Shown here: in pieces, positions 34,137 through 40,625 of the stretch
Layout: each line of letters opens with the position of its first letter
How positions within the stretch are numbered: position 1 is the first letter of the stretch
Assembly: GCA_964638175.1 (NCBI GenBank)
Contig: CAZWZY010000001.1
Coordinates: forward strand, 62,257-126,256
Length of the DNA stretch: 64,000 nt
Source of the DNA: an uncultured Thermoplasmatales archaeon
GTDB lineage: Archaea; Thermoplasmatota; E2; DHVEG-1
Direction of reading: 5' to 3'
The notes under the pieces: model-generated
What the model saw: only the letters and a program-made list of their open reading frames with translations
What the model was told of the DNA's origin: nothing
Database searches by the model: none
Position numbers and translations under genes: made by a program

Positions 34137-35507
34137 ATGTTAGGAAAGCATATGAAGAATACCGTCGATGGAATTGTCGTGGGCATGAATGTTGCTGGCG
34201 CAACGATATCCAAGGAACTTGCATCTTTAGGGCTAGACGTTCTTGTTGTTGAACGACTATCTCAAAAGAGAATTGGGAGAAAGACATGTGGCGATGGATT
34301 GGAAAAACATGAATTCAAACGATTAGGAATACCAATCCCTGAAGGAGATTTTGTTATCCGTGAAATTACCAAAGGAGAACTTGTCGCTCCAGATTTAAAA
34401 TCAAGTATAACTGCCCAAGCAGAGGGGCGTGGGATTAATAGATATCAATTTAATCAACATCTTGTATCATTAGCTCTCAAAGAAGGAGTAACCCTTTTAG
34501 ATGAAACCGTAGCAATTTCTCCCATCTTTGACGGTCAGGGTGCGTCAAGAAAGGTATCTGGGGTCACAGCACGAAACAACCAAGGAGATATCAAAAGAAT
34601 TAACGGGGAAATAGTAATTGATTGCTCTGGTGTATTTGCGAGGATACGCAACCAGTTGCCAGCATCCTGGTGGGTTTCAGAAAAAGTGGATAACGGAGAC
34701 ACTGCTGTTTGTTATCGGGAAACGCGTAAATTTGGGTTTGAATTAGATGGATTATTTGTTCGTGCGTATTTCTCAAAGGAAGTTGCCCCTGGCGCATTTT
34801 ATTGGATTGGGTGCCGAGATCTCCGAACGGTAAACATTGGCATCGGTATTCTTCGTACTCCGGGTTACCCTAACCCAAAAAAACAATTTTATGAAAAACT
34901 TCTCCCGCGTCATCCGTATCTTAAAAAGGGAAAGATTACATGGAAAAGTGGTGGGGTCGTACCGGCAAGAAGGCCTTTGGATTGTATGGTGGCAAACGGA
35001 TTTCTTGCACTCGGTGATGCTGCCTGCCAGGTAAATCCCATAAGCGGCGGAGGCATCGGTCCTTCCATGTTCGCAGGCAAACTTGGTGCCACCGTTATTC
35101 GTGAAGCACTTGAAAGCAAGGACACCAGCATTGTATCTCTATGGGGCTATAATAAAAAATATAATGACAGATATGGCTTTGTTCAGGCAGGGGGACAGAT
35201 TTTTCGAGAATTTTTATCATCTCTGAGCGATGAAGACATGAACAAAATATTGGGTGTGCAGATCCTTTCGGATGAGGATATTCTCTATGCCCTTGAACAT
35301 GGCAAACTTGATGCGGGATTTGCTACCAAACTGAGGTTGGCAAGAAAATTATTACGCTATCCGAGACTTTTGTTGTCATTACGAAAAATGCAAGCTCGTA
35401 TGGAGAAAGCGCGTTCTCTCTATTTAGCATACCCAGAAACACCTCAGGATTTCTTGTCATGGAAAAAAAAGTCCATAGTTTTTTCATGGACCTTAGTGAA
35501 TGATTGA
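34137..35507 (+). CDS. FAD-dependent geranylgeranyl-reductase-family oxidoreductase (atypical, C-terminally extended paralog)
   Basis: N-terminal FAD dinucleotide fold (…IVVGMNVAGATISKELASLGLDVLVVER…) with a …CGDG… motif as in GGR-family enzymes. About 60 aa longer than the canonical GGR at 60822. Confidence 0.65.
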   Translation: MLGKHMKNTVDGIVVGMNVAGATISKELASLGLDVLVVERLSQKRIGRKTCGDGLEKHEFKRLGIPIPEGDFVIREITKGELVAPDLKSSITAQAEGRGINRYQFNQHLVSLALKEGVTLLDETVAISPIFDGQGASRKVSGVTARNNQGDIKRINGEIVIDCSGVFARIRNQLPASWWVSEKVDNGDTAVCYRETRKFGFELDGLFVRAYFSKEVAPGAFYWIGCRDLRTVNIGIGILRTPGYPNPKKQFYEKLLPRHPYLKKGKITWKSGGVVPARRPLDCMVANGFLALGDAACQVNPISGGGIGPSMFAGKLGATVIREALESKDTSIVSLWGYNKKYNDRYGFVQAGGQIFREFLSSLSDEDMNKILGVQILSDEDILYALEHGKLDAGFATKLRLARKLLRYPRLLLSLRKMQARMEKARSLYLAYPETPQDFLSWKKKSIVFSWTLVND

Positions 35508-35554
35508 TGCGAAGTCGCGTGATTCTATGGCTGTTATCTTTTCCTGCTATGATG

Positions 35555-35908
35555 TTATGTACTTGTTTTTGGTTCTGCGGTTTTGTTCTTTTTCAGAAGT
35601 CGTTTATACATTTGTTCAGCCATCATATATCCAAGACAAACCCACCCAGGATCTTCAACCAGTGCCACAAATATATATACAACGGCAACATCTTGGGAAT
35701 ATTCGCGCATACCGGTAACAAGGCCAATGCCTTCAATCAGTGCCCATATCACCATAGCAAAAAGAAACATTTTCACTGCCCGTTTGTTCTTTGTGTATAG
35801 TGCAATACCAAGAACGGTGAGTGTAATACCAAGTACGATGAAAAAATACAAATAATTGACATGCCGGCAGACTTCTGCCGGCGACAGGACCCACTCAATG
35901 GGACTCAT
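35555..35908 (-). CDS. Small polytopic membrane protein (117 aa), unknown function
   Basis: Three predicted TM helices. Overlaps the upstream 121-aa membrane ORF by ATGA. Confidence 0.4.
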   Translation of the reverse strand: MSPIEWVLSPAEVCRHVNYLYFFIVLGITLTVLGIALYTKNKRAVKMFLFAMVIWALIEGIGLVTGMREYSQDVAVVYIFVALVEDPGWVCLGYMMAEQMYKRLLKKNKTAEPKTST

Positions 35909-36270
35909 GATTTTTCCTCCTCTTTGTATTCGGACAGGTCAATTAATCCTACCTTGTCGGCAAAAATAGCCATAACAATAAGTCCCGGTCCGCCCTCAGT
36001 TATTGCATGGTATAAAAGTTCAAGGCCTGAAAGAAAGCTATAGTGTCGCGATCCTGAACTGAATAAAACAACTTCCCATGCAAGGCCGATGAGTGCGGCA
36101 CTTAACCACAAAAACAAGGAAAATTTGAGCAGCCGATAACGTTTTGCTAAACACACAGCAAAGAGGGCAAAGAACAACATGAATAGATAGAATACTTGTG
36201 TTTGAAAGTGTCGTGATATGACAATGTCATCTATTAGCCAGCCAATATCCATAGGAATCCTCCAAATCAA
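35905..36270 (-). CDS. Small polytopic membrane protein (121 aa), unknown function
   Basis: Three predicted TM helices and an acidic C-terminal tail. Directly downstream of the UbiA paralogs. Confidence 0.4.
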   Translation of the reverse strand: MIWRIPMDIGWLIDDIVISRHFQTQVFYLFMLFFALFAVCLAKRYRLLKFSLFLWLSAALIGLAWEVVLFSSGSRHYSFLSGLELLYHAITEGGPGLIVMAIFADKVGLIDLSEYKEEEKS

Positions 36271-36331
36271 AGAGATATACTAGAGAGAATATTCGATATT
36301 GTGTATAAAGGTGTGTCGTTTTTTCAACCCA

Positions 36332-38371: not shown

Positions 38372-38410
38372 ATTTTCACATATCCTCAGGAGTGAAATAG
38401 AGAGTAGGTA

Positions 38411-39799
38411 CTACTTCTTTTTTGAGGTGATGTAAGCATCAATTGCTCTTGCTGCACGTTTTCCAGCACCCATGGCAAGGATGACGGTTGCAGCACCAGT
38501 TGCAATATCCCCGCCTGCAAAAATACCAGGGACGGGGGTTCGTCCTTCCTCATCCGTTTTAATATTTCCCCATCGTTCAATCTCAAGCTCTTTAAACGTT
38601 TGCGGGATAAGCGGATTAGGGCTTTGGCCAATGGCAATAAGCGCAGTGTCTATCTTCATGGTGAATTCTGATCCTTCAATAGGGATCGGGCGTCGTCGTC
38701 CGCTTTCATCAGGTTCTCCAAGCTTCATCTGGATGCACTCTACACCAGTAAGATGTCCTTTTTCATCTCCAAAGAATTGTTTCGGATTTGTCAATAATTT
38801 GAAAATAACGCCCTCTTCCTTTGCATGGTGAATTTCTTCGATGCGGGCAGGCATTTCTTGTTCAGACCGTCTATAAATAATGTACGATTTTTCAGCACCA
38901 AGTCGTAGGGCAGTTCGTGCACAATCCATCGCAACATTTCCTGCACCAAACGTTGCCACTGTTTTTCCAATTTTAACAGGAGTATCATATTCTGGAAATT
39001 TGTATGCTTTCATCATGTTAACACGGGTGAGAAACTCGTTTGCAGAATAGACGCCGTCAAGGTTTTCACCAGGTATGTTTAACCATCTTGGTAGACCGGC
39101 CCCCGTCCCAATAAAAACACCATCATATTCTTCCCGTAGTTCTTCAACTGTAATAGTTTTTCCAACGACCACATCATAGTTGATGGTAACACCTAATTTC
39201 TTAATGTACTCAACTTCTGATTTTACAATTGCTTTGGGGAGACGAAATTCAGGAATTCCATACATTAATACGCCGCCAGGATCATGAAACGCCTCATACA
39301 CCGTAACGTCGTGCCCCATTTTGGCAAGATCTCCTGCACAAGTAAGACCTGCAGGGCCTGCCCCAACAACCGCTATTTTATATCCCGTTGACTTTGGTTT
39401 TTTCGGCGGTTTTTCTCCTTTTTCTCGGATATAATCTGCAATAAATCGCTCTAATCGTCCAATAGCGACAGGTTCTCCAATTTTTTTTAATGTACATTCT
39501 CCTTCACATTGACCCTCATAAGGACAAACTCTTCCAGAAACGGCAGGTAGGTTGTTTTTTGCCTTGATAATTTCTGCTGCTTTTTCAAAATCTCCCTGGG
39601 CGATACATGCGATGAAACCAGGAATGTCAATTTCAACAGGGCATCCTTTTGTACATGGTTTGTTTTTACATTGTAAGCACCGTTTTGCTTCCTCAATTGC
39701 TGTTGCTGCATCGTAACCGTAGGGAACTTCTTCAAAATTTTTTATGCGTTCTTTTGGTTTTTGTTCAGGCATCGGGTGTTTTTCTTTCTTTACTGCCAT
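38411..39799 (-). CDS. NfnB / sulfide dehydrogenase SudA / GltD-like NAD(P)H oxidoreductase subunit
   Basis: N-terminal 2x[4Fe-4S] cysteine clusters then FAD/NAD(P) Rossmann motifs (…[11 protein letters not shown]…). Start set at MAVKKEKH; the track ORF starts 30 nt earlier and would overlap the upstream gene. Confidence 0.8.
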
Positions 39800-39803
39800 A
39801 TTC

Positions 39804-40625
39804 CTACACCTCTGCACATTTGCACGCATGCTCTTCTTCCTGAAGGAAACGACGGTTTCGCAGCATCAGGTTATCAAAGTCGACTTTGTGGCCATCGAAT
39901 TCTGGCCCGTCAACACAAGCAAACTTGGTTTCTTCCCCAACCGACACACGGCATCCGCCACACATACCTGTACCGTCAACCATTATTGGATTCAAACTCA
40001 CAATTGTTTTAATGTCATATTTTTTTGTCAGATTGGAGACTACCTTCATCATGATAACAGGACCTATTGCCCACACAATATCGATTTTTTTCCCTTCATC
40101 TATCATATTTTGCAAAACATCAGAGACAAATCCCTTCTTGCATTTAGAACCGTCATCAGTGCAGATATGTAGCTCGTCACTAACTTCATCAATTTCTTTT
40201 TCTAAAATCAATAATTTTTTATTCCTTGCACCAAGAATGCTGATAACATAATTGTCTGCCTGTTTTAATGCACGGATGATTGGGTACAACGGAGCGATAC
40301 CAACGCCTCCGCCGATGCATACAACTATTCCATACTTCTCAATTTCAGAAGGTTCTCCAAGAGGACCAGCAAAATTTAACAACGAATCGCCAACGTTGAG
40401 TGTTCCTAGTTGCTTAGTAGTTTTGCCAACTTCCATAAAAATGACGGTGACGGTGCCTTCTTTTCTATTGTAGCCTGCAATGGTTAAAGGGATTCGCTCG
40501 CCTTTTTCATCTATTCTGAGAATAATAAACTGTCCTGCTTGAGCTTTTTTTGCCACAAGAGGTGCTTTAATTTTCATGAGCTTCACTGTTTCTGATAATA
40601 TCTTTTTTTCAAGGATTTTATACAT
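39804..40625 (-). CDS. NfnA / SudB / PyrK-like FAD and 2Fe-2S electron-transfer subunit
   Basis: Ferredoxin-NADP reductase-like fold with a C-terminal cysteine cluster (…[12 protein letters not shown]…C…C). Confidence 0.8.

Follow-up and report, generated by a model that had tools for sequence, protein, structure and literature searches.

Two UbiA-type prenyltransferases and two small membrane proteins form a conserved gene module in uncultured Thermoplasmatota

Here, we describe a group of genes around two UbiA-family prenyltransferases and two small membrane proteins, sm121 and sm117, in a 64,000-nt stretch of archaeal DNA (the window, meaning the whole stretch that was analysed), of which 53 open reading frames (ORFs) were scanned against Pfam and NCBIfam. 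The source organism is a Thermoplasmatota archaeon of a lineage of metagenome-assembled genomes (MAGs) resembling SG8-52, and the window carries archaeal housekeeping genes including those for Alba, the TATA-binding protein and Orc1/Cdc6. SG8-52-type and related Thermoplasmatota MAGs presumably represent the Marine Benthic Group D lineage. Read from 5' to 3', the minus strand of the locus encodes an NfnA/SudB-type FAD/NAD-binding small subunit (39804-40625), the large subunit of an NfnB/SudA/GltA-type FAD and Fe-S oxidoreductase (38411-39829), UbiA2 (37376-38371; 331 residues), UbiA1 (36332-37345; 337 residues), and the three-transmembrane (TM) proteins sm121 (35905-36270) and sm117 (35555-35908; 117 residues), while a long-type GGR-family flavoprotein of 456 residues converges on them from the plus strand (34137-35507). 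All seven ORFs reported in a first-pass annotation of this DNA were found on the strands and at the coordinates given there, with the exception of two gene starts. NfnB is indeed present, but the Met annotated as its start (39799) is internal, and the start was moved to 39829, given orthologues of 461-471 residues. The true start of sm121 is probably the ATG at 36252, which would yield a protein of 115 residues, because its homologues begin with MDI. The six minus-strand genes (35555-40625) are co-directional and separated by gaps of at most 79 nt, so that they could be co-transcribed in this genome.

What are the two small proteins? Neither sm121 nor sm117 matched Pfam or NCBIfam at E <= 0.1, and no consistent family emerged when 37 diverse members were scanned against Pfam at E <= 10. 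We found 109 homologues of sm121 and 115 of sm117. Since an exhaustive profile search of 1.84 billion representatives returned only 45 clusters, the proteins constitute a real but rare family that has no Pfam or NCBIfam model. The named homologues come from SG8-52-type and other Thermoplasmatales/Thermoplasmatota MAGs, and in the case of sm121 every named one is from a Thermoplasmatota MAG. As judged by BLASTP (E 0.002) and by a family-family hhalign comparison (probability 93.5%), the two proteins are paralogous. Their genes are, from the reading frames, translationally coupled: the start of sm117 overlaps the stop of sm121 in an ATGA, as had been annotated and as we confirmed in the sequence.

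Each half of the pair carries the same sparse set of polar residues, an R before TM1, an E late in TM2, a GxRxY motif in the TM2-TM3 loop and an E at a kink of TM3. In sm121 the invariant positions are R20, W65-E66, G73-x-R75-x-Y77, E84, H88, E92-G-G-P-G and D105, and in sm117 they are R15, E59, G66-M-R68-x-Y70 and E85-D86-x-G-W. In sm121 numbering, R20, E66, (G73), R75, Y77 and E92 are invariant in both subfamilies, while the sm121-type proteins additionally have E84, H88, a kink at GGPG and, at the C-terminus, a conserved acidic tail, the nearly invariant G-(L/I)-I-D-L-x-x-Y-K-E. Charge bias and the positive-inside rule suggest that the N-termini lie outside and the C-termini inside, with the TM1-TM2 loop on the cytoplasmic side and the R and GxRxY positions on the outer side.

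The two halves also occur as natural fusions. In three such proteins (P0248, P0254 and P0255) an sm121-type domain is followed by one linker TM helix and an sm117-type domain, so that the two halves should stand side by side in the same, parallel orientation; a search of PDB sequences with P0248 gave no match. The AlphaFold model of sm121 (pLDDT 79.9) places helices at residues 10-44, 48-71 and 79-107, in agreement with the three TM segments first annotated. The fused homologue P0254 was modelled with a pLDDT of 90.9 and a pTM of 0.82, and in this model each half consists of a short strand with the invariant R, TM1, TM2, a strand with GxRxY and a kinked TM3. The paralogy, the ATGA overlap, the fused forms with their linker helix and the scores of the fused model all point to a putative heterodimer, of which sm121 would be the N-terminal-type and sm117 the C-terminal-type half.

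We found no members of the family among INPHARED phages, PLSDB plasmids and IMG/VR, apart from one doubtful match of 27 residues, and a phage holin-like reading, which the three TM segments and the N-out, C-in topology had brought up, was dropped on account of this absence. A distant pair of 130 and 123 residues (P0243; L099:7492-8218 and L100:7115-7841) lies in a mobile-element-like stretch that also contains genes for a resolvase and a protein with a ParB_N domain, and numerous small ORFs unmatched in PHROGs; the ParB-like protein was the sole match in a PHROGs scan of L099. Our literature search returned nothing relevant on UbiA proteins in Thermoprofundales/Marine Benthic Group D or on heterodimers of membrane terpene cyclases. 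Neither the family of small proteins nor its coupling to prenyltransferases is described in the libraries and the literature searched.

Both UbiA proteins belong to the PF01040 family (80.6 bits for UbiA1 and 62 bits for UbiA2, at a cut-off of 34.2) and are paralogs by their 33% identity. The motifs NExxDxxxD and GLKDxDHDAL, pointed out already in the first-pass annotation, are present in both and are invariant or nearly so over 43 UbiA1 and 32 UbiA2 sequences, window proteins included; the same alignments contain a C-terminal extension with a conserved HEM motif in both types. Because the Asp-rich motifs are kept, UbiA1 and UbiA2 look catalytically competent.

The earlier statement that the two enzymes do not clearly match DGGGP synthase was borne out by the hidden Markov model scan, and the heme O synthase and quinone types also stayed below their curated cut-offs. 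The best NCBIfam model of both is PRK12884, with 58.5 bits for UbiA1 and 49.2 bits for UbiA2 against a cut-off of 269. UbiA1 further reached 36.6 bits with the DGGGP synthase model PRK12883 (cut-off 353), 34 bits with the heme O synthase model TIGR01473 (cut-off 210.3) and 37.3 bits with TIGR01474 (cut-off 275.45), and it had weak matches to decaprenyl-phosphate phosphoribosyltransferase models; in the same NCBIfam scan UbiA2 had no match of the CyoE, UbiA, MenA or MqnP type. The models for DGGGP synthase, heme O synthase, 4-hydroxybenzoate (4-HB), MqnP and DPPR-synthase types were all far under threshold. Among PDB sequences, the only relative of UbiA1 was the Methanocaldococcus jannaschii DGGGP synthase 6m31 (E 4e-6, residues 9-144), and none was found for UbiA2. 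Archaeal DGGGP synthase (MJ0279, 6m31) is thus the nearest relative of the window proteins in both PDB and NCBIfam, and it shares with them the PF01040 fold family and two Asp-rich motifs. In contrast to the DGGGP synthase equivalogs PRK12882, PRK12883 and PRK12884, the window enzymes score only 36-58 bits against cut-offs of 269-353, begin their first motif with NE instead of ND, have KDxDHD as their second motif, carry about 50 additional C-terminal residues with the HEM motif, and occur as a tandem paralog pair that is always accompanied by the small putative heterodimer. By these scores, UbiA1 and UbiA2 are orphan DGGGP synthase-related prenyltransferases outside every curated subfamily, and as such new members of a known superfamily.

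Is the gene order at this locus shared by other genomes? From genomes and metagenomes we brought together 103 related loci, among them contigs from sediment and other environmental metagenomes such as the White Oak River SMTZ samples, and compared gene orders by script over 94 of them, 69 of which are non-redundant. For the upstream UbiA count, a locus was taken as informative if at least 2.3 kb of upstream sequence was available. At least two same-strand UbiA genes lie directly upstream of sm121 in 31 of the 37 informative non-redundant loci and one in 2 more, and sm117 follows sm121 in 49 of 54. No other family accompanies the pair nearly as often as UbiA, which is present in 69 of 89 loci. 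UbiA2 orthologues of 53-84% identity occupy the same position in related loci, and UbiA1 is the UbiA type tied most tightly to the small pair. The usual downstream neighbour is CTP synthase (19 of 35 loci), while a GGR-family gene follows the module in 7 of 35 and 10 of 30 informative loci have NfnB upstream of it. These counts define UbiA2-UbiA1-sm121-sm117 as the conserved unit, with UbiA2 as its first gene. Its arrangement is not due to chance, because the order recurs in dozens of distinct contigs; the four-gene module, which is typical of SG8-52-type Thermoplasmatota MAGs from sediment, is conserved across at least 14 MAG species. Of the larger cluster originally proposed, which comprised six genes and the facing GGR, this four-gene core stood and the NfnAB and GGR genes fell away.

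A third, divergent UbiA protein of 307 residues, absent from this window, adjoins the module in 27 loci. With 131 bits for PRK12884 and about 92 bits for DGGGP synthase models it is the most DGGGP synthase-like of the UbiA types, and in one locus (L007) the small genes are paired with a UbiA gene of this type.

The GGR neighbour deserves a closer look. The 456-residue protein scored 37.9 bits with PF22578 GGR_cat (cut-off 27), 151.6 bits with TIGR02032, just under its cut-off of 158.8, and a sub-threshold 371.4 bits (cut-off 580) with NF041080, the long-type DGGGPL-reductase model, on which its residues 11-445 align with positions 3-435 of 447. The C-terminal extension described as atypical in the first-pass annotation is accordingly a family feature, as the protein aligns with this long type from end to end. 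An orthologue in the facing position was found only in L008, L011 and L024; a 403-residue type (TIGR02032, 222 bits) takes the same position in L001, L013, L041 and L063, and a 380-residue type, 35% identical to the 395-residue GGR elsewhere in the window, lies immediately downstream of the pair in L103. Three GGR subtypes thus adjoin the pair in different lineages, and the 456-residue protein is a lineage-specific neighbour and a possible side-chain reductase. The second GGR of the window (60822-62009) and its 63-residue 2x[4Fe-4S] ferredoxin (62012-62203) were found where they had been annotated.

The identity of the NfnAB-like pair was likewise upheld, both subunits lying above curated cut-offs: NfnA reached 428.8 bits with PRK06222 (cut-off 220), and NfnB, with its Fer4_20 and Pyr_redox_2 domains, 632.8 bits with TIGR01316 (cut-off 471.75), a model that bears the name 'NADPH-dependent glutamate synthase GltA'. 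Their genes are abutting or overlapping, and the scores assign them to an NfnAB/SudAB-type oxidoreductase as a class without choosing between Nfn, sulfide dehydrogenase and GltA specificity. At the count given above, NfnAB was rejected as a component of the module; NfnB is absent in L001, L013 and L015. NfnA always travels with NfnB and is divergent from the glutamine synthetase gene glnA (40773-42110), and L008 and L024 share this divergent adjacency (38411-42110). The association of NfnAB with glnA is ordinary synteny, and NfnAB is most likely independent redox housekeeping.

The coupling of the small pair to UbiA genes extends beyond this archaeal arrangement. On the bacterial-type contigs L004-L006, an orthologue of UbiA1 with 47% identity directly precedes the pair, among five UbiA genes. 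These contigs (L004:3180-10342, L005:2905-10357, L006), together with L073 and L075, come from estuary sediment and encode a TonB-dependent receptor, an RND pump and MacB/FtsX proteins, as well as the five UbiA genes, a NirJ2/AhbD-like radical SAM/SPASM enzyme and a YghX-type hydrolase; their small pair is 56-59% identical to the archaeal one. The 419-residue radical SAM protein of the bacterial cluster was set aside as an anaerobic sulfatase maturase unrelated to the module. That the pair and a UbiA1 orthologue occur together on these contigs of bacterial type, sampled in the same estuary sediments, suggests that the unit of UbiA1 and the pair was transferred between archaea and bacteria. In the archaeal locus L089 (6208-12268), whose small proteins are 45% identical, the order is MMPL-sm121-sm117-UbiA1-UbiA2 with abutting or overlapping genes, the first of them encoding an MMPL/RND transporter of 1115 residues (PF03176, 378 bits). 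MMPL was rejected as a general partner, being seen in L089 only. Taken over L004-L006, L089 and L007, the link to UbiA crosses the divide between archaea and bacteria as well as different gene orders.

The arrangement of a UbiA gene followed by two overlapping genes for membrane proteins of about 120 residues had first been compared with C50-carotenoid gene sets, in which a lycopene elongase (CrtEb) adjoins a heterodimeric cyclase (CrtYe/CrtYf). The likeness is real at the level of gene architecture: in crtEb plus crtYe/crtYf, as with CrtYc/CrtYd, a UbiA-family gene adjoins two short, overlapping, paralogous genes for polytopic membrane proteins, and a heterodimer is expected here as there. 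Halves of such lycopene cyclases (CrtYc/Yd, CrtYe/Yf) each carry a conserved hPhE(E/D) motif. The analogy finds nothing further in its favour and is not supported by the sequences. The Pfam and NCBIfam search at E <= 0.1 gave no match of the window proteins to the lycopene-cyclase domain (Lycopene_cyc, TIGR03462), Lycopene_cyc was not among the Pfam families matched by at least two of the 37 members at E <= 10 (at most one match), and the small proteins contain no P-x-E-E/D motif, their invariant acidic motifs being TEGGPG and VEDPGW. No dedicated elongase model (CrtEb/LyeJ) is among the NCBIfam matches of the UbiA proteins, whose nearest relatives are instead DGGGP synthase-like, and the source contigs stem from sediment and other environmental metagenomes. 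The first-pass annotation had already remarked that phytoene synthase and desaturase are missing, and we indeed found no CrtB, CrtI or CrtE among the 53 scanned ORFs or the commonest families of the related loci. Two outcomes had been named there as speaking against the carotenoid comparison, orthology of the UbiA proteins to housekeeping enzymes and small proteins without relation to a cyclase family; only the second of them came about, as the small proteins indeed have no such relation but the UbiA proteins are not housekeeping orthologues. We consider a C50-carotenoid set of elongase and heterodimeric cyclase highly improbable at this locus.

At the level of fold, a different likeness comes into view. 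Eukaryotic Insig proteins are partner subunits of other polytopic membrane proteins. In a Foldseek comparison of the fused P0254 model with solved structures, only the mycobacterial Insig homologue MvINS resembled it (probability 0.77, TM-score 0.41-0.50), all remaining matches having a probability of at most 0.07. MvINS holds diacylglycerol in its pocket, and FigP of Bacillus subtilis, with a predicted fold closest to that of MvINS, is a stabilising partner of the SpoVAF channel (PMC10903944). Since the family profile reached the Insig/MvINS entries 4xu4/4xu6 among PDB sequences only at a non-significant E of 1.6-1.8, the likeness is a fold-level lead and not a membership, and INSIG was not among the Pfam families matched by at least two of the 37 members (E <= 10). 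Indeed, the small proteins have no significant sequence similarity to the Insig family (human Insig-1/2, MvINS 4xu4 and, by prediction, FigP/YqhR) and differ from it in several respects: they form a split 3+3 TM arrangement, with 7 TM helices if fused, and contain short beta strands, whereas Insig is a single chain of 6 TM helices; MvINS is a homotrimer and the small pair a putative heterodimer; and the R/E/GxRxY/E signature is not known from Insig.

Based on these observations, we tentatively favour, at somewhat less than even confidence, the reading that the module makes or tailors a prenylated lipid and that the sm121/sm117 heterodimer is a lipid-binding accessory, which presents or receives an amphipathic molecule. 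An isoprenoid ether-lipid pathway is suggested as the common theme because the recurrent neighbours are DGGGP synthase-like prenyltransferases and GGR reductases. UbiA1 and UbiA2 would transfer a polyprenyl group, probably of at least C20, to an acceptor with ties to the archaeol pathway, either a lipid or a phosphorylated compound, and sm121/sm117 would hold the amphipathic substrate or product, whose head group would sit at the R/Y/E cluster close to the outer leaflet while its chains would occupy the helical cavity of the heterodimer. We speculate that the heterodimer passes the lipid between the prenyltransferases and downstream GGR-type reductases or MMPL exporters, that sm121 may dock through its conserved acidic tail in the cytoplasm, and that, at the locus described here, the 456-residue GGR may saturate the chains of the product.

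The same residues might serve catalysis instead. The small heterodimer could be a new intramembrane isoprenoid-modifying enzyme, e.g. a protonation-type cyclase, a double-bond isomerase or a hydratase, that acts on the UbiA product and is analogous but not homologous to CrtYe/CrtYf or CrtYc/CrtYd. Invariant acidic residues inside the TM helices of both halves (E66, E92), the spacing of E84, H88 and E92 of sm121 at i, i+4 and i+8 on one face of TM3, and an asymmetric heterodimer with one richer subunit, as in heterodimeric cyclases, are consistent with such an enzyme, as are the position of the pair immediately downstream of the prenyltransferases and the frequent GGR-type reductases nearby. 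Neither the Pfam scan of the 37 members nor the Pfam/NCBIfam search with the window proteins gave any enzyme-family similarity, however, the PxE(E/D) motif and, among the scanned ORFs, carotenoid genes are missing, the sole structural neighbour is a non-enzymatic lipid-binding fold, and pairs also occur far from any UbiA gene. We regard an enzyme as unlikely on this balance.

The inferred location of the polar R/E/Y cluster toward the outer leaflet, drawn from the sequences and the P0254 model, raises the question of transport. In ArnE/ArnF and GtrA-type systems, too, the gene for a polyprenyl-carrier enzyme is followed by two small paralogous membrane genes that are adjacent or overlap and whose products are presumed to form a heterodimer, an arrangement that resembles sm121/sm117. 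The pair might by analogy be a small translocator or flippase that carries a polyprenyl-linked or amphipathic product of the UbiA enzymes to the outer leaflet. The position of two small, paralogous and overlapping membrane-protein genes after lipid-carrier enzymes would fit this idea, as would the translational coupling of the pair to an MMPL/RND lipid exporter in L089 and the weak matches of UbiA1 to decaprenyl-phosphate phosphoribosyltransferase models. Yet the ArnE/ArnF and GtrA-type proteins are four-TM members of the SMR/DMT or GtrA families, whereas the small pair is parallel with three TM helices per subunit, and the Pfam/NCBIfam scans detected no similarity to SMR/EamA, GtrA or other transporter families. 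The MMPL linkage is confined to a single lineage, and the parallel rather than antiparallel topology and the modelled beta-strand cap are atypical of small alternating-access carriers. A translocator seems to us about as improbable as the intramembrane enzyme.

Several observations weigh against the lipid-binding accessory that we favour. The Insig-like model is that of a distant fused homologue and not of the window proteins themselves. A direct hand-over of substrate is not obvious in its geometry, because the polar cluster is predicted to be extracytoplasmic and UbiA active sites face the cytoplasm in solved structures, and the membrane-embedded invariant E, R and H would suit an enzyme or a transporter equally. 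Furthermore, the pair occurs without UbiA, within the available sequence, for example in L021, L081/L082, the P0283 locus, L102, L097, L023 and L099. The neighbours in such loci are an oxidoreductase with Pyr_redox_2 and dimerisation domains in L021, a GNAT acetyltransferase in L081/L082 and at the P0283 locus, and a nitroreductase elsewhere. What stays constant is the pair itself, and it may have a wider role than to serve UbiA enzymes. Flavoproteins or acetyltransferases also flank or follow the pair in lineages without adjacent UbiA genes (L103:1804-3739, L021:6187-8237, and L081/L082).

Could the adjacency to UbiA be lineage-specific synteny only? The pair would then be a general small membrane module, such as a NuoK/MrpC-like ion or proton conductor or a flavoprotein anchor, and the distant members without UbiA, beside which lie a Pyr_redox_2 flavoprotein, nitroreductase, GNAT proteins, alpha/beta hydrolases or a mobile element, agree with this. 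So do faint sequence signals: both domains of P0254 weakly match NuoK/MrpC proteins, the N-terminal one (10-102) Pfam Oxidored_q2 (E 3e-4, 20.9 bits, under the cut-off of 26.1) and the C-terminal one (161-223) PDB 6cfw_G (E 0.0075), and the family profile picks ND4L among PDB sequences at E 0.5-1.8. NuoK/ND4L/MrpC proteins resemble the small proteins in their length of about 100-120 residues, three TM helices, N-out, C-in topology and a conserved Glu in TM2 and in TM3. These scores stay under the family cut-offs, however, and Oxidored_q2 (PF00420) found just two of the 37 scanned members at E <= 10 and neither window protein. The GxRxY loop and the N-terminal R are not NuoK features, and complex I or Mrp genes are not nearby, so that the P0254 signals possibly reflect a very remote relationship or convergence. 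The link to UbiA moreover holds over 45-93% identity, the divide between archaea and bacteria and two gene orders, and the GGR and UbiA neighbours share a single pathway theme. Synteny without shared function thus appears quite unlikely, and less likely than either the enzyme or the translocator.

A bolder extension of the lipid-binding accessory reading may be drawn from the Insig lead. In it, sm121 and sm117 would be the founders of a prokaryotic group of split, Insig-like intramembrane binders of isoprenoid lipids, obligate partners of UbiA enzymes and, in some lineages, of GGR or MMPL/RND proteins, which control or channel ether-lipid modification; in archaea they would correspond to, and might even be related to, the eukaryotic circuitry of Insig, sterol-sensing domains and UBIAD1. 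We put this forward as a long shot.

Other parts of the window show features of their own. An orc1/cdc6 gene (47084-48262, minus strand) and the adjacent intergenic region (48263-48975) probably mark a chromosomal replication origin. Upstream of orc1/cdc6, this region contains a 26-nt inverted pair (48435-48460/48609-48634; TTCCATAGGAAACAAAGGGGTCCCCC) that is 92% complementary, reads like archaeal origin recognition box (ORB) elements and encloses 148 nt with a GC content of about 30-32%. Over the window, the cumulative GC skew reaches its maximum at 44-46 kb, just before the putative origin, and an IS240-family DDE transposase (PF13610; 46176-46811, minus strand) lies at this turning point, between an HGSNAT-type membrane acyltransferase and orc1/cdc6. 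Two full-length genes for TATA-binding protein stand in tandem on the plus strand (7146-7691 and 7706-8257). They are followed on the minus strand (8278-12360) by genes for a biotin protein ligase and then a biotin carboxylase and a carboxyltransferase with biotinyl domain, of the pyruvate carboxylase/oxaloacetate decarboxylase type.

In summary, using comparative sequence analysis and structure models we found a new family of membrane proteins, marked by a sharp signature of invariant residues (R, E, GxRxY, E) and tied to a tandem pair of orphan prenyltransferases. All its named homologues come from uncultured Thermoplasmatota MAGs of sediment and other environmental metagenomes, so that the lipids concerned are not assignable from cultures. 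The module is a clonable candidate for a step in the biosynthesis or handling of archaeal isoprenoid lipids, and it is suited to direct testing in existing Escherichia coli strains engineered for archaeal lipid precursors. If the Insig-like fold reflects function, lipid-pocket partners of the Insig type would extend to the enzymes of archaeal lipids.

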